Shown: piece by piece, positions 8,229-57,960 of the stretch
How the letters are laid out: each line of letters opens with the position of its first letter
How positions within the stretch are numbered: the first letter of the stretch is position 1
IMG/VR virus record: IMGVR_UViG_3300044655_001017
DNA: 64,000 bases
Direction: 5' to 3' (one strand)
Source: a virus
Taxonomy: Duplodnaviria; Caudoviricetes
Program-made: the position numbers and the translations under genes
The notes under the pieces: generated by a model
Told to the model about the DNA's origin: nothing
Database searches by the model: none
Seen by the model: the letters and a program-made list of their open reading frames with translations, nothing else

Positions 8229-8603
8229 ACTAACTCCACTGTGTGTATACTGTATATATCACTGTGACGCCACTGTAGAGGTAGGGTGCGGGCCGAAAGG
8301 GTCCTAGGGGTCTAAAAAATTTCCCGCGCAAAAAATTAGAGAGAAGTACTTACAGATTCTCCCTGGTGATTTAGTACCTATGGGGTTAAATTTAGAGGAG
8401 TTTTTAGAGTTTTTAGAGTTTAGGGAAAAAAGGTTGCGTTGTTGTAAAAAAACAACAAATTGTTGTATTATATGTCCCCCCACCCCTCGGGGCATTGTAT
8501 TGCGTTACACTATTATAGCACACTACACACTACATTGCAAGCTTTTTTTACGCAAAAAACTAAAAAAATAAAAAAATAATTTAACATTTTTTTAAAAAAA
8601 CGC

Positions 8604-8631
8604 TTGCTATTTTTTTAAATTACTGTATAAT
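8604..8631 (+). promoter_or_regulatory. Sigma70-type early promoter
   Basis: TTGCTA-N16-TATAAT upstream of 8733. Confidence 0.6.
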
Positions 8632-8732
8632 ATGCTGTAAGTTAAGTAGTTAAGCAGTTTACTTAACTAGCGCACTAAATGTGTGCATACACGTTTAGTG
8701 CTACATTATACGCACTAAAAAAGGGCATAACT

Positions 8733-9113
8733 ATGTTAGACAATATTACAGTACAAAGCATTGCAAGTAAAAGCAACAAAACCGTGCAATGTGTAGGGGT
8801 TAGCACGCACGAAAAAGCGACAATAGGCACTAAGATACGTTTTAGCGGTAAGCCCGATAGTAGTGCGCGTGTTAGCACGCTAATTGCAACAAAATTGCAC
8901 AGCGACATAATTATGTGCGATTTAAGTGCGCAGGTTAGCGAATTGCAAGGCGCGGTTATAGTGCGCGATACGTTAGCAGATACAGACTACTTGCAAGCGC
9001 ACCAATTAAGTGCAATAGATAGCTACATTGCTAAATACAGTACGCACGAAATTAGTGCAGCACGGGAAAACATTAGCAATAACAATATTAAAATTGTTAA
9101 AATACTAATGTAA
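8733..9113 (+). CDS. Hypothetical early protein (KVRF..RV..L...H.DI family)
   Basis: Paralog of 11310..11693; start refined to ATG after AAGGG. Confidence 0.75.
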   Translation: MLDNITVQSIASKSNKTVQCVGVSTHEKATIGTKIRFSGKPDSSARVSTLIATKLHSDIIMCDLSAQVSELQGAVIVRDTLADTDYLQAHQLSAIDSYIAKYSTHEISAARENISNNNIKIVKILM

Positions 9114-9124
9114 CACAGTAACAC

Positions 9125-9157
9125 AGCAACTACACTGCAAAGTGTAGTTGCTTTTTT
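9125..9157 (+). terminator. Intrinsic terminator
   Basis: AGCAACTACACT-GCAA-AGTGTAGTTGCT then T-run. Confidence 0.8.
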
Positions 9158-9327
9158 ACTTGCTTTTTTAGTTTGTTTATGCTATAATAACGCATAGTAA
9201 AAAGTTAAAATAAAAAGCTATAGCGGGGCCGTCGGTGGCCAAGACAGACTGGATTTGAAAAGGCCGGAACCGAAACCACTATCCGATAGCTCTCCAAGTA
9301 TCTACCATAGCTCTCCACCTAGACCTC

Positions 9328-9366
9328 ACTGTATCCTTACTGTATCCTTACTGTATCCTTACTGTA
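9328..9366. repeat. 11-bp tandem repeat (ACTGTATCCTT)x3.5
   Basis: Three exact copies plus ACTGTA. Confidence 0.9.
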
Positions 9367-9407
9367 CCGGCAACAGGTGCTATATTAGTATAGCACCTTT
9401 CCCCACC

Positions 9408-9557
9408 TTAGTCAACTAAGTCTTTAAACCGTTTTATCTTACTAGTAAAGCGTGCCGCGTGTTCCTTACGTGTAAGGCTAAGCACGGTAACAAACGCTCC
9501 GCTTAATGCGTATGCGTTTCGTTTATATATGTAACCATAATAGTTGTTTGTTTGCAT
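9408..9557 (-). CDS. Small hypothetical early protein
   Basis: 49 aa, MQTNN start behind the promoter/AGCGTG leader cassette. Confidence 0.5.
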   Translation of the reverse strand: MQTNNYYGYIYKRNAYALSGAFVTVLSLTRKEHAARFTSKIKRFKDLVD

Positions 9558-10338
9558 AGTATGTTGCACGCTGTAGTTGTTTAGTAAGTGCATATTATAG
9601 CACGCTACACAAAAAATGCAAGCATTATTTTTACAAACAATAACCACACACAACCACCTATCCATAACCCCAATTTTCAAATATCTCACAGCGGGGCCTT
9701 TATAAAAGTGGTCACTTATGGCAAATGGATACAAGCGGTAAGCACTAACGCAAATTTGCGTTTTAAGCGTTGTTTGTTGTGTACTGCTATAGTTGCATTG
9801 CTTAGTATATAAACGCGTATTGTGTACACGTTAACGCGCAAGTTTTAGCAATGTAAATTATAAATGCTAAGTGTATTTTACACGCGCACGACAAATATTA
9901 AAAGTTTACAGCGGGGTATTGATATACCGGTTGCTCATTATGCTATACTATAGTATAATATTGGTATATTGAAACGTTGGTAAGATGGTAAAGAGGTTGA
10001 GGGCAGAGATAAGGGAAAGCCCGGTCCATTGCATACTGGATTCCGGGCTTTGGGCATACTATGTAAGTATGTTGTATGGTTGGTGAACAAATGCTACTAC
10101 CCATCTGCCCACCTGAGGTCTTTAGTCTTTACAGCGGGGCCTTTCTATAGGTCCTACTTTGTTTTGCGTCTAATTACTCGACGGCATGCGATTGTACTTT
10201 TTTTGGTTGCGCGATCGGATCTTCTTGCCATGTTGTTCTCCAGTGTTGTTGTAAAAAAGTATTTAACGTTTTAACTATTATACTATAGTGTTAAAGTAAA
10301 TGCAAGCACTTTTTACAGTGCTTGCATTGTGTTATTGT

Positions 10339-10698
10339 TTAATTAACAGTGCTATTTTGCACTTGTTTAACATACTTATTAAATGTTTTTTTAGTAACAC
10401 ATTTTATGTAAGCGTTGTTAATTTGCATTTGCGTTAAATTAGCGTTATTTGCTAGCGTTACTGTATAGCTAACACTGTAATTGCTAGCAAAGTTAATGTT
10501 AGCAACAAAAGCACTGCTAACATAGCATAACACATAATTTTTAGCTGCTTTGTATATTGTACGCTTTGCGTGTTTTTGCTTTGTTGCTATTACTTTGTTA
10601 TTAGCTACATAAGCGTTAAGCACTTGTAACATAGCTTGTTGCGTTGCTTTGTTACTGTTTTTTTGCGCTTGTTTGCGCGTTGCTGTAATTGTTTGCAT
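10339..10698 (-). CDS. Basic hypothetical protein lacking D, E, G, P and W
   Basis: 119 aa behind promoter cassette; terminator-like hairpin after stop. Confidence 0.6.
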   Translation of the reverse strand: MQTITATRKQAQKNSNKATQQAMLQVLNAYVANNKVIATKQKHAKRTIYKAAKNYVLCYVSSAFVANINFASNYSVSYTVTLANNANLTQMQINNAYIKCVTKKTFNKYVKQVQNSTVN

Positions 10699-10805
10699 AA
10701 TATACACACTATAGTTAAATTGTTAAAAAGCGTATGTTAAACGTAATTGCTTAACACAGTGCATATTATACACGTTTGTGTACAATATGCAAGCGTTATT
10801 TTTAA

Positions 10806-10982
10806 TTATTTTAGCAGTGCATCAAACGCTCCGCAAAACCCTGCAAACGCTATTGTTATCGGAGTAGCAACCAGCATCCACGTTACCGCGTCCACCATGA
10901 AGTTCATAACTCCATATTGCGTGTTACGCGCGTTTGCTTGTTTGTTTAAAAAATTTTGTACTGTTTGTTGTTTAGTTTGCAT
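10806..10982 (-). CDS. Small membrane protein
   Basis: 58 aa, hydrophobic C-terminal half; own promoter. Confidence 0.6.
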   Translation of the reverse strand: MQTKQQTVQNFLNKQANARNTQYGVMNFMVDAVTWMLVATPITIAFAGFCGAFDALLK

Positions 10983-11309
10983 AGTAGTAAGCACGCTGTT
11001 GTTGTTTAGTAAGTGCATAGTATAGCACGTTTAAAAATAATTGCAAGCTTTATTTGTATATTGTTTTCCGGTTGCCCAACACCTGCGAAGCCGGGGGGGG
11101 GGGGTGGTTGGTCGGTCTGTCCGATTGCCTAGCGGTCTAGTCCGGCTCTGTGGTGTGCATAGTATAGCACGTTTGTGTTGTAATTGCAAGCACTTTTTTA
11201 TTTAATTTTAGCATAGTAGTTTGCACGCTGTAGTTGTTTAAGTAGTGCATAGTATAGCATAGTTAAAACAAAAACGCAAGCACTTTTTACAGTGCTTGCG
11301 CTTGCTATG

Positions 11310-11693
11310 TTATTTAAGCACTGCTATTATTTGCACGTTATTAGTGCTTAATTCGTCTTGTGCATTGCTTTGCTCTTGTGCATTAAACTTATTTACAAAA
11401 GCTTGCATTGCACTATTTTGTTGCTCGTTATGATGTTCGCCTTGTTGTAGTGCAACAAGTGTTGCAGCTAATTCCGTGCATTGCACGTTTAAAGTGTAAA
11501 ATACTATATCGCTATGCTCTTTTGTTGCTAAAAGCGTGCTTACGCGTGCTTGCGCTGTTTTATCTGTAAAGCGTACTTTATAACCTATTGTCGCTTTAAC
11601 GTGCAAGCTTGCGCCTACTGCTATTACTTTTTTAGTGCTTGCGTTAATGCTGTTAACTACAATGTTTTGCACGCTAATGTTGCTGTTTGTCAT
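11310..11693 (-). CDS. Hypothetical early protein, paralog of 8733..9113
   Basis: Shared KATIG.K.RF...ARVSTL.ATK.HSDI segment. Confidence 0.8.
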   Translation of the reverse strand: MTNSNISVQNIVVNSINASTKKVIAVGASLHVKATIGYKVRFTDKTAQARVSTLLATKEHSDIVFYTLNVQCTELAATLVALQQGEHHNEQQNSAMQAFVNKFNAQEQSNAQDELSTNNVQIIAVLK

Positions 11694-11902
11694 TTTCTCG
11701 CTCCGAGTGTTGCACTAAAATAGTGCTATTAGTTAATACTGCTGTTTGTTACTACAAGTGCTATTATACGCTGTTTATTTGCACTTGTAAAGCGTTTTTT
11801 TAAAATACTTTTAAAACGCTTTTTTGTTGCACTGCTTTACTACAAAAACTATTATACGCTTTTTTGCGTAAATGTAAAGCGTTTTTTTATTTTATTTTTT
11901 GC

Positions 11903-11931
11903 TTGCATTTACTGTTTTATTGTGTTATAAT
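11903..11931 (+). promoter_or_regulatory. Sigma70 extended -10 promoter with no downstream ORF
   Basis: TTGCAT-N17-TATAAT with TG. Confidence 0.6.
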
Positions 11932-11975
11932 AGCGCAAGCGTAAAGCCCGCGCTACCGGTTCTCTCTATACCGCC

Positions 11976-12173
11976 TTACCTCATATCGCTGTCCGCCGCT
12001 TTATCACAGCGTGTCGCATATCCGGTGAGCACCGACTCATTCAACTTATCGAGGAGTTGAACTTCCATTGCCCGGTGTTGTTGGCACTCAGCTAGTGTTG
12101 GATATATGAATGTGTTATCAATTTCCTGCGCCCCAATAAACATCATCACTTTCAATATATATAATGCTTCCAT
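11976..12173 (-). CDS. Small hypothetical protein
   Basis: GGAGC RBS, own promoter. Confidence 0.6.
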   Translation of the reverse strand: MEALYILKVMMFIGAQEIDNTFIYPTLAECQQHRAMEVQLLDKLNESVLTGYATRCDKAADSDMR

Positions 12174-12501
12174 TGTTCTTGCTCCGCTTGTTACGTTAGC
12201 TTTATTGCTAACTTGCATATAGTATAGCAAACTATTAAACTATATGCAAGTGTTTTGTTTTCGACTAGTCCACTAATGCACTTGCTCTAAGATCCACAAA
12301 GTTCGCATACTTCATTGTGTCTTTTGTTTCTCTGCGCTCACGTAGTAGTGCAGTCCGGGCACGCTCGACTTCTCTGCGGGTCTGTACACCAATTAGTCTT
12401 GCGCTCAACACTGCCGTATATTCTTGTACCGGTTTCATTCTATGCTCCTAATGGTTTCAAAAGTTCGTTGTTGTCAGCACGTCCATGTGCCCTGTGTTAG
12501 T

Positions 12502-12801
12502 TTATAGTCCGTACATTTCAGCTACGCTGTTTGCCACACGTCCGTCGTTACCCCATTGTACTTTAATGCAACCCGGATGTTCATTGCCCAGTGCTGCCAA
12601 CTTAGCAAGTGCCAATTCCCAGTTGTTTAGTTTGTCTACTGGTTTCGGAGCGTCAGCACTTGTAAAGTAGTTAGCTGGTGGTACCTTACGTTCCGGAACA
12701 TTGCTTTTACTTGTTTTCACTTTGCCGCCTGCTTCCAAAAACGCTTGTACTGCATTGTTTGTTGCTGTGTTTTTTGCTTGTTTGTTTGTATTAGTAAACA
12801 T
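12502..12801 (-). CDS. Hypothetical early protein (AV.AFL..GG family, cf. 14451)
   Basis: Promoter cassette; AFLEAGGK resembles MFLATGGA in 14451. Confidence 0.65.
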   Translation of the reverse strand: MFTNTNKQAKNTATNNAVQAFLEAGGKVKTSKSNVPERKVPPANYFTSADAPKPVDKLNNWELALAKLAALGNEHPGCIKVQWGNDGRVANSVAEMYGL

Positions 12802-12976
12802 AATTTGCACGCTGTAGTAGTGTTAACAGTTAAACGTTATTGCTTAACTTGCATATAGTATAGCAAAGCAAAACTGGTATGTAAAGCGTTTTTTTTAAGT
12901 GTTGTTTCCATTGTGCCCACGCGTGTACACATAAACAGCGGGGCCTTTTCGGCACTTCCCTGTGCCGTTGTATCCG

Positions 12977-13318
12977 TTATAGTCCCGATCCGCATAAGCA
13001 GTTATACACAAACTCAGCATCCTGTAATGCCACATTGTTTATGTAATCCACTAAGTCCTTGTGCTCCTCTACTTCCTCTACAAACGCTTGTACCGCAGCA
13101 TCATCGTTCCACAAGTCATCATGTGCTTCGTAATGTCTGTTGTATATTGTTACCATTTGCGCAATTATATGCACCGGATGTTCAGTAGTGCCCCACTCCT
13201 CCGCATAGTTCTCGTCCGCCAACATAAACACTGTACTTGTTACGCTGGGAGTTAGCGGGTACTTGCTTGTGTTTGCGTTTGCTGTGTTAATTTTTGTTGC
13301 TGTAGTAGTATTTTGCAT
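12977..13318 (-). CDS. Hypothetical protein, tandem duplicate 1
   Basis: Near-identical C-terminal half to 13487 (IYNRHYEAHDDLWNDDAA). Confidence 0.75.
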   Translation of the reverse strand: MQNTTTATKINTANANTSKYPLTPSVTSTVFMLADENYAEEWGTTEHPVHIIAQMVTIYNRHYEAHDDLWNDDAAVQAFVEEVEEHKDLVDYINNVALQDAEFVYNCLCGSGL

Positions 13319-13486
13319 AGTTAGCACGCTGTAGTTATAAGTTAGCTTAATTGCTAACTTGTACATATTATAGCACGTTTAAACATTTTGTAAAGCGTTT
13401 TTTTAAGTTTTGTTTTCGCTGTTACCATACGCGTGTACACATAGCAGCGGGGCCTTTCCGAGCACGTCCATGTGCTCTGTGTTATC

Positions 13487-13834
13487 TTACAAGCCCGAGC
13501 AACATAAGCAATCATACACAAACACTGTGTTCTGTAATGCCACATTGTTTATGTAATCCACTAACTTCGCATTGTCCTCAACTTCCTCTATACACGCTTG
13601 CATCGCAGCATCATCGTTCCACAAGTCATCATGTGCTTCGTAATGTCTGTTGTATATCTCTGCTATCTTTAATACTATGTGTGTCGGATGTGTCGTTGTG
13701 CTCCACTCCTCCGCAAAGCTCGCATCCGCCAACAGTGCCAGCACACTTGTTTTGCTCGGATAGTACCCGGGCAATTTGCTTGTGTTTACGTTTTGTGTGT
13801 TAATTTTTGTTGCTGTAGTAGTATTAGTTTGCAT
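13487..13834 (-). CDS. Hypothetical protein, tandem duplicate 2
   Basis: Paralog of 12977 with duplicated promoter and CAGCGGGGCC. Confidence 0.75.
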   Translation of the reverse strand: MQTNTTTATKINTQNVNTSKLPGYYPSKTSVLALLADASFAEEWSTTTHPTHIVLKIAEIYNRHYEAHDDLWNDDAAMQACIEEVEDNAKLVDYINNVALQNTVFVYDCLCCSGL

Positions 13835-14013
13835 AATAAGCACGCTGTAGTAGTGTTAACAGTTAAGCGTTATTGCTTAACTTGTACATAGTATAACACG
13901 TTTAAACATTTTGTAAAGCGGTATTTTAGAGTATTGTTTCCGACATAACCGGGGGGGGGGTGGTCGGTCGGTCTGTCAGATTGCTTGGCACTTCCCTGTG
14001 CTCGATATATCAG

Positions 14014-14385
14014 TTATGCCATTATGCTCGCTACTTCAGTGTATCGTTGTTTCAATCTTTCGATCATATGGAGTAAGTCGACATTAAAGACTAAGTCATA
14101 TACATCGCTTTCCGTTGTACTCACTATACCAATTGCACTCGTGTAATGGAGTTGTTCGACTATAGTCGTTACAGTCGTTACATCTATTTTCAATTGTTTC
14201 GATACTTCGGCTAGTAACACTTTCGAAACTGTCTTGCGATCTCTGTCCGCTAGTCTATGAAACCCTTTTGCCAACATCCTTGCAACATCGGTATTTTGGC
14301 GTATCGTTGCACCAATGCTATCGTTATGCTCGTGTAACTCGTTTAAAAACTTAATATGGTTTCTCAATACTGTTTGGATAATCAT
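14014..14385 (-). CDS. Hypothetical protein
   Basis: 123 aa, GGAGCG RBS. Confidence 0.65.
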   Translation of the reverse strand: MIIQTVLRNHIKFLNELHEHNDSIGATIRQNTDVARMLAKGFHRLADRDRKTVSKVLLAEVSKQLKIDVTTVTTIVEQLHYTSAIGIVSTTESDVYDLVFNVDLLHMIERLKQRYTEVASIMA

Positions 14386-14450
14386 TATGCGCTCCAGTTA
14401 ATCAGTTAAGTACGCGCATACTCGATATATGCGCGTGTAAACAGCGGGGT

Positions 14451-14717
14451 CTATTGGCGTGCTTTGATTGCCGATTGCACCTGCTTGTTCAACAGCCCAA
14501 TTGCCGCTAGCTCCTCTTTAGCTTGTTCCCATGTGTATCGTTGTTTCTCTACTACAACTACGCGGGGAGTATGGACTTGTGATACTGTAGTGCGTCCTCT
14601 GCGTCCTGTTTTAGTTGTTTTAATTGCTCCTCCGGTTGCTAAGAACATTGCCACGCGAGCCGCTAACTCCGCTGCTTGTTGTTGTTTAACTTCGTTGTTC
14701 ATAATACCTGTTGCCAT
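14451..14717 (-). CDS. Hypothetical protein
   Basis: 88 aa, coupled to upstream ORF. Confidence 0.6.
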   Translation of the reverse strand: MATGIMNNEVKQQQAAELAARVAMFLATGGAIKTTKTGRRGRTTVSQVHTPRVVVVEKQRYTWEQAKEELAAIGLLNKQVQSAIKARQ

Positions 14718-14878
14718 TATACACGCTCCGCTTTATCGTTAATGTCAGTTTCTTCAGTTTGCTCACAATCCCAACATGGTTCAAGCTCATCTGTTTCCAT
14801 GTTGTATAGTACAGTCAAGTCCCCACACGTAGTGCAATACGCGCGTAGTGGGTAAGTGTTTTTGTATTGTACTTGCAT
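14717..14878 (-). CDS. Small Zn-ribbon-like protein
   Basis: CTTC...CWDC. Confidence 0.55.
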   Translation of the reverse strand: MQVQYKNTYPLRAYCTTCGDLTVLYNMETDELEPCWDCEQTEETDINDKAERV

Positions 14879-14983
14879 AATTTTTACACGCTGTTTTGTT
14901 AATGTGTGCATATTATAGCATTGTAACACGCGCATTGCAAGTAGTTTGTTAACCGCAATGCGCGTGTACATAAGCAGCGGGGC

Positions 14984-15400
14984 CTATACGGTAGTTACGA
15001 GCAACAAGTTGTCCAACACATCCGCTTTAGCTCTGTATACCATGTTGCCGTGTCTCGTATGCTCAATTACAATCCCATTTGCCTCACACCACAAGTCCAA
15101 ACGCGCTGCTCTTAAGCTCACTTTATCTTTAAACTGTGGTTTGTTGACTTTAACGGCAATAAACTTTTTTCTGTAGTTCATAAACACGTTGCTCTGTATA
15201 TACACATCCTCAATGTGTGCTAACAACGCTTCCCCTGCGCTCAATTGCACTAAGCTATACAAACTCTCATTCTCAGCGTCTCTGCGTTTAATATCCTCTA
15301 AGCACACGTAAGCTGGAAGTTTGACGTCATCCGATGTGTGTGATACAGCGTGTACAATAGCAGTAGCTGTGTTTTTGAGTAATTTAGTAGTTGTTGACAT
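14984..15400 (-). CDS. Hypothetical protein
   Basis: 138 aa, promoter cassette. Confidence 0.65.
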   Translation of the reverse strand: MSTTTKLLKNTATAIVHAVSHTSDDVKLPAYVCLEDIKRRDAENESLYSLVQLSAGEALLAHIEDVYIQSNVFMNYRKKFIAVKVNKPQFKDKVSLRAARLDLWCEANGIVIEHTRHGNMVYRAKADVLDNLLLVTTV

Positions 15401-15505
15401 ATGATACGCTCCGAAAGTTATGTTAAGTTTTAAACAGTTAGCTGTTTTGCTAACTTGTACATATTATAGCAAACTAAGTACAAGTTAGCAAGTGATATTT
15501 TTGAA

Positions 15506-15694
15506 CTATAGTTCCACTAGCTCGCCGCGTGCTACTGCGTCCGCAGCTTCTAGTTCCTCTTTATAGAACTTGTTGATAGCATTGTTTGTTTCGAGATACG
15601 ATTTGGAGTTTTTGGCTTGTGTACGCAATTGGCGTGTGAGCATGTTAATGTATTTGATACGCGCGGCGCTTGTGATGTAAAGTATTTTTTGCAT
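15506..15694 (-). CDS. Small helical protein, paralog of 16161
   Basis: NSKSYLETN vs NSKAYLEAN. Confidence 0.6.
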   Translation of the reverse strand: MQKILYITSAARIKYINMLTRQLRTQAKNSKSYLETNNAINKFYKEELEAADAVARGELVEL

Positions 15695-15793
15695 AATATA
15701 CACGCTATAGTTATAAGTTAGCTTAATTGCTAACTTGTACATATTATAGCAAACTATATACAAGTTAGCAAATGGTATTTTAGAACTTTGTTT

Positions 15794-16066
15794 TCACCCT
15801 TCCGGATAGCAACCAGCTTCCATCATTGCATAGATAACTCGTTCTCTTGGTAGAGTATCTTGATATACCAGCGAGTTGATTAACTGATCGTAGTCGCCGC
15901 TTTTCATATAACTGATTAAACACTTTTGGTTGTACTTGCCATCTTCAATTGCCAAGTCCATAAAGTCCCACTCATCTGCTTCGGCATACTCTTTTGCTTG
16001 AGCATTGAAGTCGGTAACACATTGTTTGAGGGTAGCGATTACAACAGGATTAGTAGTGTTTGGCAT
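15794..16066 (-). CDS. Hypothetical protein
   Basis: 90 aa, own promoter. Confidence 0.65.
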   Translation of the reverse strand: MPNTTNPVVIATLKQCVTDFNAQAKEYAEADEWDFMDLAIEDGKYNQKCLISYMKSGDYDQLINSLVYQDTLPRERVIYAMMEAGCYPEG

Positions 16067-16160
16067 AGTAGTTTACACGCTGTAGTAGTTAAGTAAGTGT
16101 ATATTATAAAGCATTGCAGGCGGTTTGTAAAGAACTTTGTTAACCGCCTGCCGGTATATA

Positions 16161-16418
16161 CTACGCGGCTTCTAATTGCGCCAATGCAAACGCTTCATCA
16201 AGTGCCATCTCCGCAATGTATATACGGTTTAACTGAGTGTTGGCTTCCAGGTAAGCTTTGGAGTTAACACGCGCGGCACTGATTTGAGAGCGGAGCGAAC
16301 GGATTTGGCGGGCGGTCGCTTCCGATACAAGGCGCTTTGGCTTTTGGGCAGCTGCCTCCGCTTCGGCTTGCTTGTGTGCTTTAAGTTTGGCTGCTAACGA
16401 TACATTGTATTTTGACAT
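16161..16418 (-). CDS. Small helical protein, paralog of 15506
   Basis: Own promoter. Confidence 0.65.
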   Translation of the reverse strand: MSKYNVSLAAKLKAHKQAEAEAAAQKPKRLVSEATARQIRSLRSQISAARVNSKAYLEANTQLNRIYIAEMALDEAFALAQLEAA

Positions 16419-16587
16419 AGTAGTTTACACGCTTGTTGTTAAGTAAGTGCATATTATACTATAGTATGCACTGGTTGTCAAGAACTTTATATTCACCCGC
16501 GCTCGCACACGCGTAAACAGCGGGGTCTATCCGGGGGGGGGGAGGTCGGTCGGATTGGCCGGTTATTCGCTGCCCCCAATCTATCGG

Positions 16588-16761
16588 TTACTCATCGTCC
16601 CATATGTCGTCCCAGTCTATTGGTGTGTAGGCATCATCTATATCGTCTCCCCAGTCTTCGTCCATTCCTGCAAAGAACTCTTTTCGCTCTTGCATTAAGG
16701 TCGCACCGCGTGTTTGAAGTATTGCTAACTGCTCTCTTAAGTTTTGCTCTATAGCTTCCAT
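16588..16761 (-). CDS. 57-aa protein with Asp/Trp-rich tail (not in ORF track)
   Basis: GGAG RBS; ...DEDWGDDIDDAYTPIDWDDIWDDE*. Confidence 0.6.
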   Translation of the reverse strand: MEAIEQNLREQLAILQTRGATLMQERKEFFAGMDEDWGDDIDDAYTPIDWDDIWDDE

Positions 16762-16825
16762 AACAGCTCCGACTAATTAGTTAAGTCGCCCCGCCATACA
16801 CACATATGCAGCGGGGCCTATTACT

Positions 16826-17179
16826 CTATGCTACTGCTAACTCAGCTTCCAGTGCATCTGCTGCTGCCGCGTAGTCCACTTCCTCAACTACTACACTTTG
16901 TGGAGCAACCACTGTGTACTTGCTAAAGAAGTCATCGAATGCTTGTTGTGCATCTAAGTCCTCTAACTCTGTGTAGTTCTTAATTGCCATTGCTGCATCA
17001 TACTTGGTCATTGCACCGTCTAGCGCAAACAATCTAATGTCTGTGTGTCCATTGCGTTGTAACACTTTCACACGATCCGCTTTGTTAGCAAATCGTACTT
17101 TGTACACACCATTTAAGTTGCTGATGCCAGCGAAAGTAAATGTTTTTTCAACTGCAGTAACTGTGATTAAGTTTGACAT
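16826..17179 (-). CDS. Hypothetical early protein (KVRFAN..RV..L..NGHTDI family)
   Basis: Close paralog of 35649..36134. Confidence 0.75.
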   Translation of the reverse strand: MSNLITVTAVEKTFTFAGISNLNGVYKVRFANKADRVKVLQRNGHTDIRLFALDGAMTKYDAAMAIKNYTELEDLDAQQAFDDFFSKYTVVAPQSVVVEEVDYAAAADALEAELAVA

Positions 17180-17273
17180 ATTGTACGCTCCAAAAAATAG
17201 AAAAGTTAAGTTGTTTTACTGCTAGTTAGCTAACGCGCTTGTTAGCTAACTTGTTACATATTATACAGCATTT

Positions 17274-17507
17274 TTAAAACATTGCAAGCATTTTGTTTTC
17301 TCTTGCTTCAAGTATTGCATCAATACGCGCCTCAACACTCTCTGCGCTCTCAAGTGTTGTCCAGCCGCCGTTGTTGTGGCGTCCATCTTGTACTGAAGTT
17401 TCCATAATTCCTGTGTTTCTATTTTTATACTCCGACACTGTGATAGTAGTGTTAAAGTAGATAGTAACGATGTTGTTGCTTGTTGTAGTAATTTTTAATT
17501 TATACAT
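17274..17507 (-). CDS. Hypothetical protein
   Basis: HNNGGW motif; GGAGCG RBS. Confidence 0.6.
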   Translation of the reverse strand: MYKLKITTTSNNIVTIYFNTTITVSEYKNRNTGIMETSVQDGRHNNGGWTTLESAESVEARIDAILEARENKMLAMF

Positions 17508-17737
17508 AATACGCGCTCCGCATTGTTGTTTAACTTGTACATAGTATAGCAAACTTATTTTGGTTTGTAAAGAAGTTTTAAATCACTAGCTCATACCAGT
17601 TCAATACAGCGATTGCGCTCAATAATACGATAGTAGTGAATACTGCGAATGTGTGTATAAACGACATTTTGTTTGCTCCTCATATATATAGTACACGCAT
17701 AGTATAGCAAACTACATACAGGTTGTCAACTGGTTTG

Positions 17738-18304
17738 TTACTCGGTGTATGCCGCCATTACCAATCCCACATAGTTCTGAGTCTCCGGATATGGTGGAAC
17801 CTTATTCTTATGCCGCATCACCGCATGCTCGCCCGCATTGTAACCGGCTACTGCTAGTTTGGTATCTTTGAATGTATCGAGCAAGAACCTTAGGAACCGA
17901 ACTCCACCTTCAATGTTCTGTCTTTCATCCATCCGATCACTCACTCCAAATCGCTCTGCCGTTGCCGGCATCAGCTGCATCAATCCAGCCGCACCTTTCT
18001 TACTTACAGCCGATTTGCGATATGTACTTTCCGTTTTAATGACTGCATGTACCAACTTCTCATCCACTCCATACTTCTTTGCAGCGATATGAACATAGTG
18101 ATTGACTTCCCATCGGGTTAATGGTTTGGTCTCCGGTTTCGCTACTATAGTAGTATGAACAACTGGTTTGGCTGCAGTATTGATCTCAACCGGATGATCT
18201 GTTAACCAAACTCGCCCATCCGCTCCCGTATATCTATATACATCCGCATTCACCGGCATTACTACTATAGTAGCGAGAATGGCAGCGCGGATCATTTGGC
18301 GCAC
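17738..18304 (-). CDS. Lytic transglycosylase (SLT) with signal peptide and DUF4124-like N-terminus
   Basis: AVIKTES, GLMQLMP, AGYNAG, PPYPETQNYV; DVYRYTGADG. Confidence 0.9.
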   Translation of the reverse strand: MRQMIRAAILATIVVMPVNADVYRYTGADGRVWLTDHPVEINTAAKPVVHTTIVAKPETKPLTRWEVNHYVHIAAKKYGVDEKLVHAVIKTESTYRKSAVSKKGAAGLMQLMPATAERFGVSDRMDERQNIEGGVRFLRFLLDTFKDTKLAVAGYNAGEHAVMRHKNKVPPYPETQNYVGLVMAAYTE

Positions 18305-18588
18305 TCTGCTGCGAACTTAACCATTGCTGCATACTCTGGATTGGCTACAGCGGTGACTACATGAGTAAGTAAATGAGCAATCATTGTAATCCCACCGATC
18401 CATGCTACGATCATTACACATGCATAGGTAAACGCATCCGATCCATTGAACTCATCTTTTAATAACTTAAACAGATAGTATGATCCAGCTAATACTCCAG
18501 ATATTACTACTATAGCGGCAATGTCTGGAATGGTGTCTATAATAGCTTGCTTTGCCAATAACTCTTGTGGTACATTGCATAACTTCAT
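18292..18588 (-). CDS. Two-TM membrane protein
   Basis: Two hydrophobic helices; overlaps SLT start. Confidence 0.65.
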   Translation of the reverse strand: MKLCNVPQELLAKQAIIDTIPDIAAIVVISGVLAGSYYLFKLLKDEFNGSDAFTYACVMIVAWIGGITMIAHLLTHVVTAVANPEYAAMVKFAAECAK

Positions 18589-18989
18589 AACGCGCTCCGC
18601 AGTTGTTGTTTAACTTGTACATATTATAGCATACACAGCGGGGTCTGTAAAGAACTTTGTTACTCGTATACGCCCACTTGTATGTGCGCGTGTAGCGTGT
18701 TATATTATAAGCGCATAGCATACTATAGTATAAGTATGCTCACGCACTATAGCGCATTTATACGCGATATACGCTATGATACACTATAGTATAATAATAA
18801 GCGCATATACACATATGAGTAACTATGCACAGCGGGGCCTTTTATAGGTCCAGGACTCGATAATAACTCGTCATCTTCGGTTTTTGGCCCGCGTCGTTAG
18901 CGGTCTGCAACACCATGATTTTGCCGTTTTTCACGTTTATAGACCGACCTAGTACCAGAGTACAGGGTCCGGTTAAAAAGAATAAGAAA

Positions 18990-19104
18990 AAGCTCACTTT
19001 AGGGAGCGAATCTAAAGTGAGCTTATAGAGTTACTATAGTATAGGGAGCGAATCTATACTATAGTATATAGAGTATAGTTGGGAGCGAATCAACTATACT
19101 CTAT
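18990..19104. repeat. Three tandem perfect hairpins with identical loop GGAGCGAAT
   Basis: Stems 13/13/14 bp of different sequence. Confidence 0.95.
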
Positions 19105-19121
19105 TCATATGCGCGTTATTA

Positions 19122-20000
19122 TTATCTATGTGGGCGCATACAAGTTACAGAAGCTACTGCTTCCCAGTTAGTTGGCATTGCTTTACGCAAATCTGCTACT
19201 TTAAGAACCATACGCAAACTCAATTCACGCATTTTCTTTCTGTGTGTATCGATGTAGTTGAGGATCTCTTCAGCTTCATCTTCTTGGAATTCATACTTGT
19301 CTAGCATACCGTCGCTTACGATTTGCTTAATACGCAACATCTTTTCGCGTTCTGTGTCTATAGTAAGATCTAAGTAGTGGCAACGCGACTCTAATGCTTC
19401 TAAATGATCTTGCAATTTCTTGCTACGAACATGATCAAACTTAACATTTGTAATGAATATACAGCCGCCTTCAAAGTCAAAACTATTTGGAATACCTGCG
19501 TCCTTTAGTATGCGTGACTCTGTGTGCCAACTGATAGTACGCTTACGCCCAGTATCCAATGCTGCTTTGAGCAAGTTGAGCGCAATATCATCAAACAATA
19601 CACTATCGCAGTCGTCAAACACTACGATACACTTCTTGTCCTTATAGTCCCACAGCATTTGATATAAACATAATGCACTGATGTTACCTTTTGCTATAGT
19701 GTACTTCTTTAAGGTTTCATCTTGTGCTACATTGGCGAACACATCATAACGCGATAACACTGTTTCTACACCGTGTGATTTGCCTACTCCAGGTGGTCCA
19801 CTTACGATCATAGCGCGAACATCACCTTTCTTTACTGCACGAGTCATATCATCTAGTATGGCAAACCGTGTGCGCAACCGTTCTACAATCTCTTCGTCCG
19901 TTTCGTGTGATACATGTTCAGCCGGTCTTTGCGCTATAGTACGGTTGGTCTTGATTGTGTCTACGGTGATCATTTGTGGTCTTGCTACTGTTTGTTGCAT
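19122..20000 (-). CDS. AAA+ / P-loop ATPase
   Basis: Walker A GPPGVGKS, Walker B VVFDDCD, FITN sensor, ALESRC arginine finger. Confidence 0.85.
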   Translation of the reverse strand: MQQTVARPQMITVDTIKTNRTIAQRPAEHVSHETDEEIVERLRTRFAILDDMTRAVKKGDVRAMIVSGPPGVGKSHGVETVLSRYDVFANVAQDETLKKYTIAKGNISALCLYQMLWDYKDKKCIVVFDDCDSVLFDDIALNLLKAALDTGRKRTISWHTESRILKDAGIPNSFDFEGGCIFITNVKFDHVRSKKLQDHLEALESRCHYLDLTIDTEREKMLRIKQIVSDGMLDKYEFQEDEAEEILNYIDTHRKKMRELSLRMVLKVADLRKAMPTNWEAVASVTCMRPHR

Positions 20001-20065
20001 ACTTGCTCCGCATTGTGTGTTAGTAAGTGTTTATTATACTATAGTATAGTATGACTGTCAACTGG

Positions 20066-20251
20066 TTATCTAATCATTAGCGATATACATACACCAGTTA
20101 TCAATGGCACTAGATATATAGGTTCATGTGTTTCAATGTAGCCAGCTGCTCCTACACTGACTAATACAGTGACTAATCCAATCCAAAATACTGCTAATAT
20201 TGCTCCAATTACTACTATAAAAAAAGCTAATGAGAATATCGAACCTATCAT
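20066..20251 (-). CDS. Small membrane protein
   Basis: Hydrophobic 61 aa; own promoter. Confidence 0.6.
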   Translation of the reverse strand: MIGSIFSLAFFIVVIGAILAVFWIGLVTVLVSVGAAGYIETHEPIYLVPLITGVCISLMIR

Positions 20252-20511
20252 TGTTGCGCTCCTACGTTGTTTAACTGTTATGCACATTATAACACACTGC
20301 TTTGAACATTGCAAGCACTTTTTTGGCACAATTTTACCACTGTAATACAACTGTAATGATATAGTAGGAATGGGTGGTTGGGCGGCATAGCTACAATAAA
20401 TACCCCATTGTTTTCCACAAAACCCCTCATATCCCCTGTAACCACCATAGGCCTCCTCTATTGTTTACCAAATAGTGCCACGTGTGCCGCAGGCCTAGCT
20501 TTCATCTCTAT

Positions 20512-34514: not shown

Positions 34515-35210
34515 ATGAAATTATGTAAAGAATGTTCAACACCTGTTACAAAACGAGATAATATATTTTGTAACCGATCCTGTGCCGCAAAGTATAACAA
34601 CCGTTCAAAAGATTATTCAACATTTAAATCAGGACCACAAACATTAGAATCAAAATTAAAAACATCGTTGGTTAGACGTGCTATCAATAAACAGAAACGT
34701 TCATTAACAGGACCATCAAAAAATTATCTATATGTCACTTCACAAACTGCAATCAAAGAGGCCATTGCTAATAATATACCATACACTAAAGTTTATCTAT
34801 GTAACTGCAAAAAGACAAACATTACTTGGTATTCAACTTCATGGAAATGTGTACATCCTTCTGTAATACAATCAAAAAGTGAATATAGATATCAATGTCG
34901 TTTTAACTTTTCATTATCTCAATTTAAAGATTGGTTTGATTACTCATCTACACTAATTGAAACATATGGTTGGTATTCTGCATCCAACAAACATAATAAT
35001 CTATCCGGATGCTCTCGAGACCATATGTACTCAGTTAGTGATGGATATGCAAACAATGTCAGTCCTGCTATTATTTCACATCCTGCTAATTGCGAAATAA
35101 AACCACATCGTTTAAATCAATCAAAACATTCAATCTCCTCTATTACCTTAGAGGAGTTACATACTCGTATTGCCAAATTTGATAAACAATACGCTAATTG
35201 GAGGAACTAG
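34515..35210 (+). CDS. HNH homing endonuclease with N-terminal Zn finger
   Basis: CKEC..FCNRSC; SRDH..S....HPANC....H..N; ATAAATA at 34489 upstream. Confidence 0.75.
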   Translation: MKLCKECSTPVTKRDNIFCNRSCAAKYNNRSKDYSTFKSGPQTLESKLKTSLVRRAINKQKRSLTGPSKNYLYVTSQTAIKEAIANNIPYTKVYLCNCKKTNITWYSTSWKCVHPSVIQSKSEYRYQCRFNFSLSQFKDWFDYSSTLIETYGWYSASNKHNNLSGCSRDHMYSVSDGYANNVSPAIISHPANCEIKPHRLNQSKHSISSITLEELHTRIAKFDKQYANWRN

Positions 35211-35273
35211 CCGAAGTTGCATCGGCACCGCAAGGTTTTGCAGACCTGCATACTGCTGTTATACTATAGTTCC
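35199..35273 (-). tRNA. tRNA-Cys(GCA)
   Basis: GGAACTA/TAGTTCC acceptor, CTGCAAA loop, U73, CCA; atypical T-loop TGCAACT. Confidence 0.8.
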
Positions 35274-57034: not shown

Positions 57035-57507
57035 ATTAGGTATAAAGGACTAAAGTCCTAAATTATAATAATTTTATATTCGTTGGCACTCATATCAATT
57101 ATTATAATTTTATTTTCTTTCTTTGAATATTTTGTTAGATTTAGAAGTCATATTGGCCCGCAAAGGCCAATGGAACATTTGTTGAGTTTCTTCATGTCTT
57201 AGCATTAGAGCATTACAGAGGCGGTCATCCGGTACCTCGAGCTCCGTCCTGGTTTTTATATGACGGCGGACTAATTATACAATGCTAACCATATAATCAG
57301 TCGTAAGGGTGTTACCCTTTCTTTTAACCTTATGTGTACAGCGGGGCCATAACCTGTAATGAGTTTTGTAAAGGTACATCTCATGTTCATCCAAATGGGT
57401 AGGTGGTTATGTCGTTGCTACAGTTCAACAATTCCATCACTGTGATACATCTGTCCAGTTATAGGGCGCATAGATAATACAGTTTGCGCGACACCTGCTG
57501 TAGTTAT
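57035..57507 (-). ncRNA. Candidate large structured ncRNA or leader
   Basis: ORF-free ~480 nt with many nested helices downstream of TTGACA-N17-TATAGT. Confidence 0.55.
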
Positions 57508-57513
57508 GCGTAC

Positions 57514-57542
57514 ACTATACAGTATATGCACACGTATGTCAA
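57514..57542 (-). promoter_or_regulatory. Near-consensus sigma70 promoter
   Basis: TTGACA-N17-TATAGT. Confidence 0.75.
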
Positions 57543-57568
57543 GTGTTATTATGTTACAGCGGGGCCTT

Positions 57569-57775
57569 TTAGTACGATGCAGCTGTACTAACAGGAAGTA
57601 ACAACCATTCTTCTAAGTTACCTGTATAGTTATCGCCAGTAAAGATTTCCATCTCGCAACGAAACTCGTCATGTTTAAAAGCATAAACAGTAATGCTAGA
57701 ATCGATTGATATTATCCGCATGTACAACATACATCCAGTTTCTACTATTCTTCTGTCAGTATAAATGGTTTCCAT
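57569..57775 (-). CDS. Hypothetical protein
   Basis: CTAAATA (57798-57804) and GGAG RBS. Confidence 0.55.
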   Translation of the reverse strand: METIYTDRRIVETGCMLYMRIISIDSSITVYAFKHDEFRCEMEIFTGDNYTGNLEEWLLLPVSTAASY

Positions 57776-57960
57776 GGTATTACTCCGGTTGATAAATTAT
57801 TTAGTGTATGTGTTACAGCGGGGCCTATTTGCATATAACGTGTTATGCGTATAGTATATAAGTGTATATGTGTGTTGTCAATGTGTATGAGCGTATTACA
57901 TGTATATGTAATTATACTCGTGTGGAAATGTGTGTAATGCAGAGTTTACAGCGGGGCCTT

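Follow-up and report, generated by a model that had tools for sequence, protein, structure and literature searches.

The window analysed here, a 64,000-nt stretch from an uncultured freshwater giant phage, carries a locus of small early genes in which four dinucleotides, GA, GG, TC and CC (together GR/YC), are depleted. We call a stretch without any of the four on either strand a free run, and count promoter coordinates from the first base of the -10 box. The features of the locus and of the DNA just beyond it are as follows.

8492-8723 (232 nt) and 9067-9225 (159 nt), plus strand: free runs flanking the promoter TTGCTA-16-TATAAT (-10 at 8626) plus a 126-aa gene.
8733-9113, plus strand: the 126-aa gene, in which only a few GA, GG or CC remain, in codons for D, E, G and P.
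9536..9644, minus strand: Group I cassette, TTGCAT 9621, TATAAT ending at 9594, AGCGTG 9572-9567, ATG 9557; run of 109 nt.
10241..10822, minus strand: free run with TTGCAT/TATAAT (-10 at 10770), AGTGTG 10710-10705 and a second promoter (-10 at 10282).
10698-10339, minus strand: 119-aa gene without D, E, G, P or W, wholly inside the 582-nt free run.
10913..11067, minus strand: Group I cassette, TTGCAA/TATACT (-10 at 11024), AGCGTG 10997-10992, ATG 10982; 23 free codons, MQTKQQTVQNFLNKQANARNTQ.
11153..11353, minus strand: free run with promoters whose -10 boxes lie at 11256 (TTGCGT/TATACT, AGCGTG 11229-11224) and 11166.
11303-11272, minus strand: intrinsic terminator hairpin inside run 11153..11353, itself GR/YC-free.
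11706..11947, minus strand: Group Ib, a 242-nt free run carrying a pair of TTTACA promoters (-10 at 11856 and 11768).
11693-11310, minus strand: 127-aa gene whose canonical GGAG (11704) is the exact end of the 242-nt run.
12736..12876, minus strand: Group I cassette, TTTACA/TATACT (-10 at 12862), AGCGTG 12813-12808, ATG 12801; 21 free codons, MFTNTNKQAKNTATNNAVQ.
13259..13416, minus strand: Group I cassette, TTTACA/TATAAT (-10 at 13372), AGCGTG 13330-13325, ATG 13318; 19 free codons, MQNTTTATKINTANANTSK.
13771..13920, minus strand: Group I cassette, paralogue of 13259..13416, TTTACA/TATACT (-10 at 13895), AGCGTG 13846-13841, ATG 13834; 21 free codons.
14852..14953, minus strand: Group I cassette, TTGCAA/TATAAT (-10 at 14917), AGCGTG 14892-14887, ATG 14878; 8 free codons.
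15414..15494, minus strand: Group Ib cassette, TTGCTA/TATAAT (-10 at 15468), ATG 15400; run halts at GGAGCGTA (15412).
15675..15774, minus strand: Group I cassette, TTGCTA/TATAAT (-10 at 15748), AGCGTG 15706-15701, ATG 15694; 6 free codons.
16063..16119, minus strand: Group I cassette, TTTACA/TATAAT (-10 at 16108), AGCGTG 16081-16076, ATG 16066; run stops at codon 2.
16415..16473, minus strand: Group I cassette, canonical TTGACA (16481), -10 at 16458, AGCGTG 16433-16428, ATG 16418; run stops at codon 2.
17201..17299, minus strand: Group Ib cassette, TTGCAA/TATAAT (-10 at 17265), ATG 17179; run halts at GGAGCGTA (17191).
17519..20304, minus strand: first Group II promoters (-10 at 17548, 18628, 20038 and 20291); free runs of 43-45 nt.

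GR/YC account for 15.9% of all dinucleotides in the window and for only 3.8-8.8% in the 500-nt bins from 8.5 to 12 kb. The window holds 72 free runs of at least 40 nt (about 10 expected) and 21 of at least 60 nt (0.31 expected), and 18 of these 21 fall at 8.5-18.7 kb; the record length is 582 nt (10241-10822). When 45 strand-symmetric dinucleotide-class pairs were ranked by over-dispersion, GR/YC came top by far. Depleted stretches alternate with the 3' parts of genes at 12-17 kb, so the depletion is not a simple regional property. We could confirm that GR/YC depletion at early promoters is genuine, and found no published description of such a ban at phage early promoters.

The promoter set comprises 47 curated elements with a TATAAT or TATACT -10 box, a TTG- or TTT-type -35 box, a spacing of 16-18 bp (mostly 17) and an ATG 25-86 nt downstream. 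Two hexamers so spaced, with a gene downstream, mark them on sequence as probable sigma70-type promoters. A GR/YC-free core is present in 47 of 47, from about -15 to +25 and in every case covering at least -12 to +20. In Group I (n=11, 9.6-16.5 kb), the profile aligned on the -10 box shows the free zone stretched to -40 to +90, with sense-strand GR and YC both near zero (at +40 to +80, 0-0.009 and 0.018-0.045 per position, respectively) and background level reached again by +130. The ten Group I promoters with a called gene have 7, 152, 23, 21, 19, 21, 8, 6, 1 and 1 free codons; the eleventh, whose -10 box lies at 11256, had no called gene. At 17.5-56 kb, some 32 further promoters of the sigma70 type retain GGAG and ordinary codons, with GGAG tolerated at +25 and a conserved YC tolerated at about -27. 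Group II runs are closed off on the downstream side by GGAG and on the upstream side by a YC lying shortly after the -35 box, and about 28 further promoters of this build lie at 27-56 kb. GGAG is also retained by four promoters inside the 8.5-17.5 kb locus (-10 at 11768, 12226, 15468 and 17265).

The initial annotation had described depletion over promoter, leader and typically the first 20-30 codons. The three peptides it quoted are correct throughout, with 23, 19 and 21 free codons from ATG 10982, 13318 and 12801, but its typical figure is too high, the range being 1-23 codons and once 152. It had tied the constraint to initiation by host sigma70 RNA polymerase, which agrees with the core shared by every promoter, although the zone leans downstream, as far as about +90 and in one case through the whole 119-aa gene. 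That genome position alone is not the cause, as it also held, is borne out by the alternation with gene 3' parts. The ban is specific to host-type promoters: in the other 169 kb of G002, a near-identical 176-kb relative, the start codons of 101 ORFs of at least 150 aa have no depletion around them. The long form, with its replaced Shine-Dalgarno sequence and its reach into N-terminal codons or whole genes, is nevertheless confined to one locus (8.5-17.5 kb), and since GGAG and ordinary codons persist at the roughly 32 promoters outside it, the locus or the class of gene counts besides the promoter. No depletion was seen at TATAAATA sites, which are so few (2 plausible in the window, 5 in G002) that the early-versus-late comparison has low power.

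The same annotation was right that most -35 boxes depart from TTGACA: the 47 promoters use TTTACA, TTGCAA, TTGCAT, TTGCTA, TTGCGT, TTGCAC or TTGTAA, and TTGACA was counted four times among them (elsewhere in our analysis eight are listed, at 16458, 17706, 20038, 52781, 53091, 57519, 57858 and 59340). TTGNCA cannot be written under the ban because any N gives GA, GG, CC or TC, and its exclusion leaves TTTACA and TTGC/TAA, the two classes seen. TTTACA also matches the -35 consensus of T4 early promoters (GTTTAC), and by this analogy the TTTACA class may be ancestral rather than an adaptation. The ban likewise excludes every 3-mer of AGGAGG, so no Shine-Dalgarno core is possible. Group I leaders lack, 5-10 nt before the start codon, a run of four or more bases complementary to the 16S 3' tail and read AG(C/T)GTG. 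Replacement of AGGAG by AGCGTG had been noted at four leaders, and we found it at the GGAG position in all of them (9572-9567, 12813-12808, 13330-13325 and 16081-16076) and in more (10997, 11229, 13846, 14892, 15706 and 16433), with AGTGTG once (10710); relatives have AGCGTA at this position. The predicted anti-SD duplex of Group I (-2.5 kcal/mol) is weaker than that of random 22-mers (-3.2), compared with -7.2 for Group Ib and -6.5 for Group II.

Substitutions creating GR/YC in free runs numbered 15 of 199, 6 of 82 and 7 of 46 against three relatives, where 91, 38 and 21 were expected; by strand, there were 10 new sense-YC against 45 expected and 5 new sense-GR against 46. Selection keeps GR/YC out on both strands. 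The 11 Group I cassettes are not independent cases, since they group into two or three families of paralogues; at the level of sequence comparison, the test against orthologous sequence in relatives shows that selection stands despite this paralogy. The families, the swapping of cassettes between orthologues and the low-complexity N-terminal tags with in-frame indels would suit an origin without any functional ban, through duplication of a few GR/YC-poor cassettes or through local mutational bias (error-prone base exchange, deamination) in weakly constrained accessory DNA. We consider this origin very improbable, and it is largely refuted by the substitution tests, in which post-divergence changes avoid new GR/YC three- to six-fold. 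Moreover, non-homologous DNA in relatives is equally free: in G002, window 8968-11873 is replaced by other sequence with its own long runs. The GC dinucleotide is 2.2-fold in excess, which keeps up the G+C content and speaks against decay towards A/T, and the remainder of the genome has no matching depletion; long free runs in G002 occur only in the homologous early locus and at two sigma70 promoters.

Close relatives of the window phage, the only genomes in which the modification gene cluster was examined, carry modification genes. G002 encodes FolE (PF01227, E 2e-60), a QueE-like radical SAM enzyme (phrog_2076, E 1e-58), a PRTase and a glycosyltransferase-like gene. None of the ORFs neighbouring this cluster in G002 could be recognised as QueD or QueC. 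Between PolB and the FolE/QueE cluster sits a 543-aa protein with an invariant DSGGFQ motif (L021:3056-4687, 84% relative). Its AF2 model has a TGT fold (pLDDT 85.6) and its top 50 Foldseek matches were all tRNA-guanine transglycosylases (probability 1.00), so that, in these relatives, it is a predicted TGT-fold DNA transglycosylase as in DpdA-type systems.

The cultured relative PA5oct has a TGT-like gene of the L021 type beside PolB and QueE, and 18 free runs of at least 60 nt, where some 1.5 would be expected. Tandem TTGCAA-17-TATAAT promoters (267341-267557) are among them, and so are codons 1-44 of gp065, in a region called early by the PA5oct authors. [quoted passage not shown] Its resistance to ApaLI (GTGCAC) is at odds with a pure GA/GG motif.

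The motifs of DpdA-dependent 7-deazaguanine modification are GA and GGC in CAjan (PMC7544227), GA only in iggy (PMC10484667) and, from the restriction patterns, GA and/or GG in PA5oct (PMC12191111). This motif class, G then purine on either strand, is the set banned here, and PA5oct shares the enzyme, the synteny and the GR/YC-free early stretches with the clade of the window phage. The passages of these papers that were searched deal with base placement and restriction blocking, with no mention of target-free promoter islands.

Our preferred reading, to which we assign a probability of roughly 0.45, is that promoters are kept free of the phage's own G-modification sites so that host sigma70 RNA polymerase can start. 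Virion DNA of the clade would carry a bulky 7-deazaguanine-type base for G before purine (GA/GG, either strand), infection would have to be started by the host enzyme on this modified DNA, and selection would strip target sites from the DNA that the polymerase recognises, melts and first transcribes. At all host-type promoters the protected span would begin within the -35/-10 spacer and end at about +25; in one set of immediate-early cassettes it would take in the entire -40 to +90. Strand symmetry would follow because the target is a dinucleotide step. The -35 box would fall back on TTTACA or TTGC/TAA, GGAGCG would be reduced to ACAGCG(TG), and first codons would be limited to Q, T, N, K, A and similar residues. 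In the major groove, where the 7-substituent sits, sigma70 contacts G-33 through R588 and the G opposite C-31 through R584. The ban, its anchoring at promoters, the selection against GR/YC on both strands and the modification genes of close relatives are direct observations, whereas we infer that the window phage's DNA is modified at GR and that the modified base hinders the host polymerase. A link to virion DNA is plausible by analogy, given the TGT-fold enzyme, FolE and QueE in relatives and the modified G reported for PA5oct (PMC12191111).

Against this reading, the free zone, extending to +90 and in one case over an entire gene, exceeds the needs of initiation. RNA polymerases generally read major-groove-modified templates, which counts against hindrance, and so do the roughly 32 promoters tolerating GGAG and YC, together with the TTGACA promoters, against the reading as a whole. 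It is also at variance with CAjan, in which preQ0 at GA and GGC is proven and an excess of motif-free runs is absent, and with Sinorhizobium phage Phosso, which has a TGT-like homologue without GR/YC-free islands. That a DpdA-type gene alone is insufficient for the pattern, as these two phages show, favours instead a host or other cellular reader of GA/GG/TC/CC steps in duplex DNA, with the first-expressed cassettes stripped of its sites so that they function ahead of any counter-defence. The reader might be a defence nuclease, a CRISPR system with a dinucleotide PAM, or a YC-specific DNA deaminase or ADP-ribosyltransferase, although to our knowledge no bacterial defence reads so short a duplex step. 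Such a reader would account for a ban that is strand-symmetric, selected and limited to first-expressed, host-transcribed DNA. Its nearest analogy is CpG suppression against ZAP in the immediate-early gene IE1 of HCMV (PMC7498042), where a dinucleotide class is likewise purged only from the first-expressed gene(s), at a cost in coding freedom; that case, however, involves a eukaryotic virus, an RNA sensor and a single dinucleotide, and here four dinucleotides obey one duplex rule in promoter DNA too. We judge a duplex reader unlikely, since shielding just 100-150 bp per gene would be useless if the genome were cut or mutated elsewhere, and since the banned set matches the motif that experiments on PA5oct suggest for its modification (PMC12191111).

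Past their free runs, early gene bodies are more depleted in TC and CC than in GA and GG (sense-strand observed/expected 0.55, 0.57, 0.91 and 0.76, respectively). This would fit readers of RNA, with YC purged from the 5' 100 nt so that Rho cannot load on weakly translated early transcripts and GA/GG purged on separate grounds, for instance to prevent false ribosome-binding sites or to evade an RNase that is directed by SD sequences or specific for G-purine. YC, the specificity of Rho primary sites, is half of the banned set, YC-/C-rich elements occur only at the 3' ends of early units, where GRCCCCGCTGT motifs and extremely C-rich elements occupy the transcript strand in the manner of designated Rho sites, and intrinsic terminators are few on the transcript strand of these units. 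Rho, however, reads RNA only, and the untranscribed promoter DNA upstream of the start is also under the ban. Instead of the YC-only depletion of the transcript strand that Rho avoidance would leave, sense-GR is banned as strictly as YC or more so, and selection against new sense-GR is the stronger. Two unrelated readers would need to match one duplex rule exactly, and no RegB homologue was found in the relatives or PA5oct; we regard this explanation as quite improbable.

EcoRI sites are absent from the first-step-transfer region of T5, and avoidance of this type resembles the present case in being concentrated in DNA that works before cell takeover. Classical avoidance concerns sites of 4-8 bp, mostly palindromes, whereas the unit avoided here is a dinucleotide step found in only 4 of 16 four-base palindromes, at the price of recoded -35 boxes, ribosome-binding sites and proteins; GCGC, ACGT, TGCA, AGCT, CGCG and similar words abound inside the free runs.

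Hyperplastic regions of T4-like phages hold mobile promoter-stem-loop cassettes (PeSL) and many small early genes, each with a strong sigma70-type promoter. We know of no dinucleotide ban, Shine-Dalgarno replacement or GR/YC-free N-terminal tag in T4 cassettes. The two systems have in common a TTTACA-like -35 box, a conserved promoter for each small early gene and exchange between genes and genomes. Cassette exchange between orthologues is seen at the gene with ATG 17507, which has GCGGAGCG in the window and ACAGCGTAAC in G001.

The dinucleotides GA, GG, TC and CC (GR/YC, where R is a purine and Y a pyrimidine) make up 15.9% of the dinucleotides of the window and 3.8-8.8% in the 500-nt bins of 8.5-12 kb. 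Stretches without any of these four banned steps (free runs) of at least 40 nt number 72 in the window versus about 10 expected, and those of at least 60 nt number 21 versus 0.3 expected; 18 of these 21 lie within 8.49-18.74 kb, and the longest spans 582 nt (10241-10822). Among all 45 strand-symmetric dinucleotide-class pairs, GR/YC is the clear outlier for over-dispersion, both in the window and in its near-identical relative G002. Between the free runs are GR/YC-rich, ORF-poor islands (9226-9535, 9645-9737 and 9891-10240), possibly small structured RNAs; in one of the islands, a TTGACT/TATACT promoter (-10 at 9392) precedes three tandem ACTGTATCCTT units (~9331-9363).

From ~9.3 kb to ~59 kb, almost all genes are small, lie on the minus strand and have their own promoter. 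A PHROGs search assigned no function to any of the 20 early proteins, and megablast of window positions 8500-20350 against 50,697 phage records gave no DNA-level match. The DnaB-like helicase (599-2002) has 58% identity to its counterpart in PA5oct, a cultured Pseudomonas jumbo phage, and an AAA protein (19122-20000) has 49% identity to its PA5oct homolog. Four IMG/VR fragments are close relatives of the window, and genome-wide tests were done on G002 in place of the window's own genome.

IMG/VR fragments related to the window
G001, 88.5 kb: 89-93% identity over window 16.3-21 kb
G002, 176 kb: 96% identity over window 11.9-15.7 kb and 88% over 7.0-9.0 kb
G003, 98 kb: 78-85% identity over window 11.9-20.6 kb
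G004, 30 kb, CheckV 9% complete, from a different sample: two query early proteins at 99% identity, likewise found in G002

Three independent metagenome contigs break at window ~15.4-16.3 kb (G002 ends at ~15723, G004 ends at ~15420 and G001 starts at ~16267), likely because assemblers fail on the repeated promoter cassettes (15436 and 15716, spaced by 280 nt) rather than because the genome ends there.

We curated 47 minus-strand sigma70-type promoters, aligned them on the -10 box, by whose coordinate each is named, and distinguished three builds.

Builds of the curated promoters
-10 at 9599, 10770, 11024, 11256, 12862, 13372, 13895, 14917, 15748, 16108 and 16458, minus strand: Group I (n = 11)
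-10 at 11768, 12226, 15468 and 17265, minus strand: Group Ib (n = 4), same locus as Group I, free run ending exactly at a canonical GGAG
17.5-56 kb, minus strand: Group II (n = 32), stereotyped 43-45-nt free run with GGAG as its downstream bound

The Group I free run crosses the leader, the place where GGAG would stand and the ATG, and continues for another 1-23 codons; at promoter 10770 it reaches 152 codons and covers the whole gene. In Group II, the upstream bound is a conserved YC (ACC, TCC or ATC) immediately 3' of the -35 box. The -10-aligned profiles show that sense-strand YC and GR are both near 0 from -40 to +90 in Group I, returning to background by +130, versus a GR/YC-free zone of only about -15 to +25 in Group II. 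A free core is therefore present in every host-type promoter, and a far longer version occurs at a single locus. The initial annotation had the depletion typically covering the first 20-30 codons: its extension into the gene is seen and the three peptides quoted there are exact, but the length is not typical, since the ten Group I promoters with a called gene give 7, 152, 23, 21, 19, 21, 8, 6, 1 and 1 codons. Six promoters (27223, 28461, 31036, 33167, 37216 and 37580) also carry a perfect 9-bp inverted repeat across the -10 box (GCGCATAGT-TTGTTAT-ACTATGCGC), of which other copies have matching changes in both arms (GTGCATAGT ... ACTATGCAC); it looks like the operator of a dimeric regulator, or a cruciform.

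That the -35 boxes are mostly not TTGACA, as had been proposed, is borne out, with TTGACA in 4 of the 47 curated promoters; the others have TTTACA (~15), TTGCAA or TTGCAT (~20), or else TTGCTA, TTGCGT, TTGCAC or TTGTAA. TTGNCA always includes a banned step (GA, GG, CC or TC for N = A, G, C or T) and cannot be written under the ban, so a free -35 box loses either G-33 or C-31, which yields two classes exactly as seen. The Shine-Dalgarno sequence meets the same constraint, every 3-mer of AGGAGG including GG or GA. Leaders of Group I have AGCGTG (10/11) or AGTGTG (1/11) 6-12 nt upstream of the start, and AGCGTG replaces GGAG at all four places where it had been noted before. Canonical leaders in the window read GGAGCG(C/T), and the ACAGCG(TG) of Group I looks like a remnant of GGAGCG after loss of GG and GA.

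Group I leaders pair with the 16S tail at a predicted -2.5 kcal/mol, versus -6.5 to -7.2 for canonical leaders and -3.2 for random 22-mers, and the relatives have AGCGTA where Group I of the window has AGCGTG. Because this pairing is predicted to be weaker than that of random sequence, and AGCGTA stands in the relatives, we do not regard AGCGTG as a probable working Shine-Dalgarno sequence; the same two observations weaken the idea of a designed surrogate (AG, a bulged C and GUG pairing with CACCU). The gene at 17507 (N-terminus MYKLKITTTSN) has a GCGGAGCG leader in the window and a ACAGCGTAAC leader in G001, a 92% relative, with the same N-terminus. Judging from this sequence comparison, the two leader types are interchangeable, and whole promoter-leader cassettes appear to have been swapped between orthologs. 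Regardless of what lies behind them, the leaders of Group I provide a natural collection of efficient-looking genes lacking any Shine-Dalgarno sequence.

Surviving banned steps in the early locus are found chiefly in the element ACAGCGGGGYC, which occurs at 22 sites in the window (one mismatch allowed) versus 0.35 expected, all on the plus strand, so that the transcript strand reads GRCCCCGCTGT. The sites mark early-unit ends, apart from two within a promoter spacer (18628 and 38735), and the initial hexamer of the element is the complement partner of ACAGCG in the Group I leaders. A G10-run element (GGGGGGGGGGTGGTYGGTCGG...), C-rich on the transcript strand, is found where early units have their 3' ends or (11166) directly under its own promoter and could be a Rho-type terminator or a small RNA.

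Elements at unit ends
9688, 10131, 12935, 14441, 16517, 18635, 38742, 40979, 53139 and 57338-57948, plus strand: examples of ACAGCGGGGYC
11095-11133, 13951-13989 and 16533-16571: three copies of the G10-run element

The cassettes form two or three paralogous families, so cassette counts and alignment-column shuffling overstate independence, and a column-shuffle test of the promoter alignments (10 observed versus 80 expected), inflated by these families, was set aside. We relied on orthologs, a comparison unaffected by cassette paralogy, and, within free runs of the window, counted the substitutions that give a relative a banned step, with all possible changes as expectation. Such substitutions were 15 of 199 in G003 (91 expected), 6 of 82 in G002 (38 expected) and 7 of 46 in G001 (21 expected), and strong deficits persist after the expectation is halved to allow for the free runs having been ascertained in the window. 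Paralogy of the cassettes, or a mutational bias, is thus a very improbable source of the free runs, being contradicted by these deficits and by a 2.2-fold excess of GC, which holds G+C up.

Changes that create sense-strand YC (10 versus 45 expected) and sense-strand GR (5 versus 46 expected) are both in deficit, so each half of the rule is being maintained. Readers acting on RNA, with Rho for YC, would fit the distal early gene bodies, where sense-strand YC is more depleted than GR, as well as the C-rich elements and GRCCCCGCTGT motifs at unit ends; they leave unexplained the equally strict ban on sense-strand GR and the ban in untranscribed promoter DNA, and we consider them unlikely. A RegB-like GGAG-specific RNase, as the cause of leaders without a Shine-Dalgarno sequence, is unsupported, the search for a homolog in relatives and in PA5oct being negative. 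Strand symmetry is consistent with a host reader of duplex DNA that recognizes GR/YC; there is no known candidate for it, and this too seems improbable, if slightly less so than reading at the RNA level.

In G002, unrelated sequence with long free runs of its own replaces window 8968-11873. Across the 176 kb of G002, runs of at least 60 nt are found only in the homologous early locus, at a sigma70 promoter (9701) and in one coding stretch; another sigma70 promoter (3955) has a 42-nt free run, and ~40 shorter runs elsewhere are at chance level. The proposed contrast between early and late promoters, on TATAAATA, has low power since the sites are too rare (the window has 4, of which 2 are plausible promoters, and G002 has 5), and GR/YC occurs within 1-17 nt of all of them. 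The profile around non-early start codons was used as a substitute: 101 ORFs of at least 150 aa outside the early locus of G002 show no depletion, with GR/YC at 0.11-0.18 per position around the ATG.

At the start of G002 are genes for a glycosyltransferase-like protein, for a PRTase, for FolE (E 2e-60) and for a QueE-like enzyme (E 1e-58). In an 84% relative that extends further upstream, a 543-aa protein is encoded between a family-B DNA polymerase and the FolE/QueE-type cluster; about 58 contigs carry the GT/TGT cluster. The family has an invariant DSGGFQ motif (alignment of 26 homologs), and the AlphaFold model (pLDDT 85.6) has none but tRNA-guanine transglycosylases (TGT) among its top 50 Foldseek hits, with probability 1.00. 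The TGT relationship comes from the fold search only, sequence searches of the protein and its profile against PDB chains giving no match. PF01702 (TGT) was not found in four relatives searched; a six-frame search with it also misses the experimentally proven transglycosylase DpdA of phage CAjan (NC_028776.1), so negative TGT-family searches in phage contigs say little.

PA5oct gp168 is the same protein, beside the polymerase and QueE, and PA5oct depends on host RNA polymerase (PMC7318152). From its restriction pattern, PA5oct DNA is reported to have a modified G at GA and/or GG (PMC12191111). Its genome has 18 free runs of at least 60 nt versus ~1.5 expected, 16 of them in the end regions (1-45 kb and 232-287 kb). 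They cover two tandem TTGCAA-17-TATAAT promoters (267341-267557), the greater part of gp099 and codons 1-44 of gp065, three examples that fall within the gp34-gp105 block called early by the PA5oct authors; further free runs are at 264998-265138 and 277085-277227. Across phages, presence of the TGT-like gene and of islands is mixed: PA5oct has both, the Sinorhizobium phage Phosso has the gene and no islands, and Atu_ph07 has no such gene and AT-rich runs only. Unlike PA5oct, CAjan, with an unrelated DpdA and proven preQ0 at GA and GGC, has motif-free runs at chance level.

Our best explanation, to which we give a probability of roughly 0.45, is that the free zones avoid the phage's own GR-specific guanine modification; we favor it because the rule applies to duplex DNA, is linked to host-type promoters and matches the modification motif inferred for PA5oct. 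It is through the major groove that sigma70 recognizes G-33 and the G paired with C-31. The 7-substituent of a modified G would sit in that groove, at the same two bases; G-33 in TTGCAA, and the partner of C-31 in TTTACA, would not be open to modification. Several observations count against a simple account by initiation, the reading first proposed: the free zone extends further downstream than upstream, to +90; Group II tolerates GGAG at +25 and YC at about -27; eight promoters use a TTGACA -35 box; CAjan shows no excess of motif-free runs despite its proven modification; and Phosso has the enzyme without islands. TTTACA is, moreover, also the T4 early -35 consensus.

A wider reading, which we hold as doubtful, is that the sequence encodes the phage's epigenetic map. 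Guanine hypermodification specific to GR would be genome-wide, with modification-free islands at host-polymerase promoters and over the whole translation-initiation region of immediate-early cassettes; single conserved sites (in ~30 promoters the YC at about -27, and at unit ends the ACAGCGGGGYC element, rich in GGGG) would occupy positions at which a modified base either is tolerated or serves as a signal. Besides forming an anti-restriction coat, modification of the DNA would then regulate, as a built-in device, the temporal program of transcription.

If avoidance of the phage's own modification is correct, DNA hypermodification limits what a phage can write as promoter, as ribosome-binding site and even as protein. 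Islands without target sites would be a sequence-only signature of the genes first read by host polymerase and of the modifying enzyme's motif, so that both the motif and the immediate-early gene set could be predicted from sequence alone in uncultured jumbo phages. They would also offer a direct way to ask whether bases of the 7-deazaguanine type disturb bacterial transcription, and with the same pattern in cultured PA5oct the question is testable now. No description of dinucleotide-free early promoters in phages was found in the literature searched, and the passages searched in the papers on CAjan and iggy, another phage with 7-deazaguanine modification, do not mention target-free promoter islands. 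New in the present analysis are the promoter-aligned anatomy, the logic of the -35 classes and of Shine-Dalgarno loss, the two-strand selection test, the leader swap between orthologs, the negative controls CAjan and Phosso, and the demonstration of the pattern in PA5oct, a phage in which the idea is open to test.

Two RNA matches lie elsewhere in the window. A fourth tRNA-like match is at 35202-35273, where ARAGORN makes no call, and a match to the Polynucleobacter-1 RNA (Rfam RF01718, 59.6 bits) is on the minus strand at 57350-57494, downstream of a TTGACA/TATAGT promoter.
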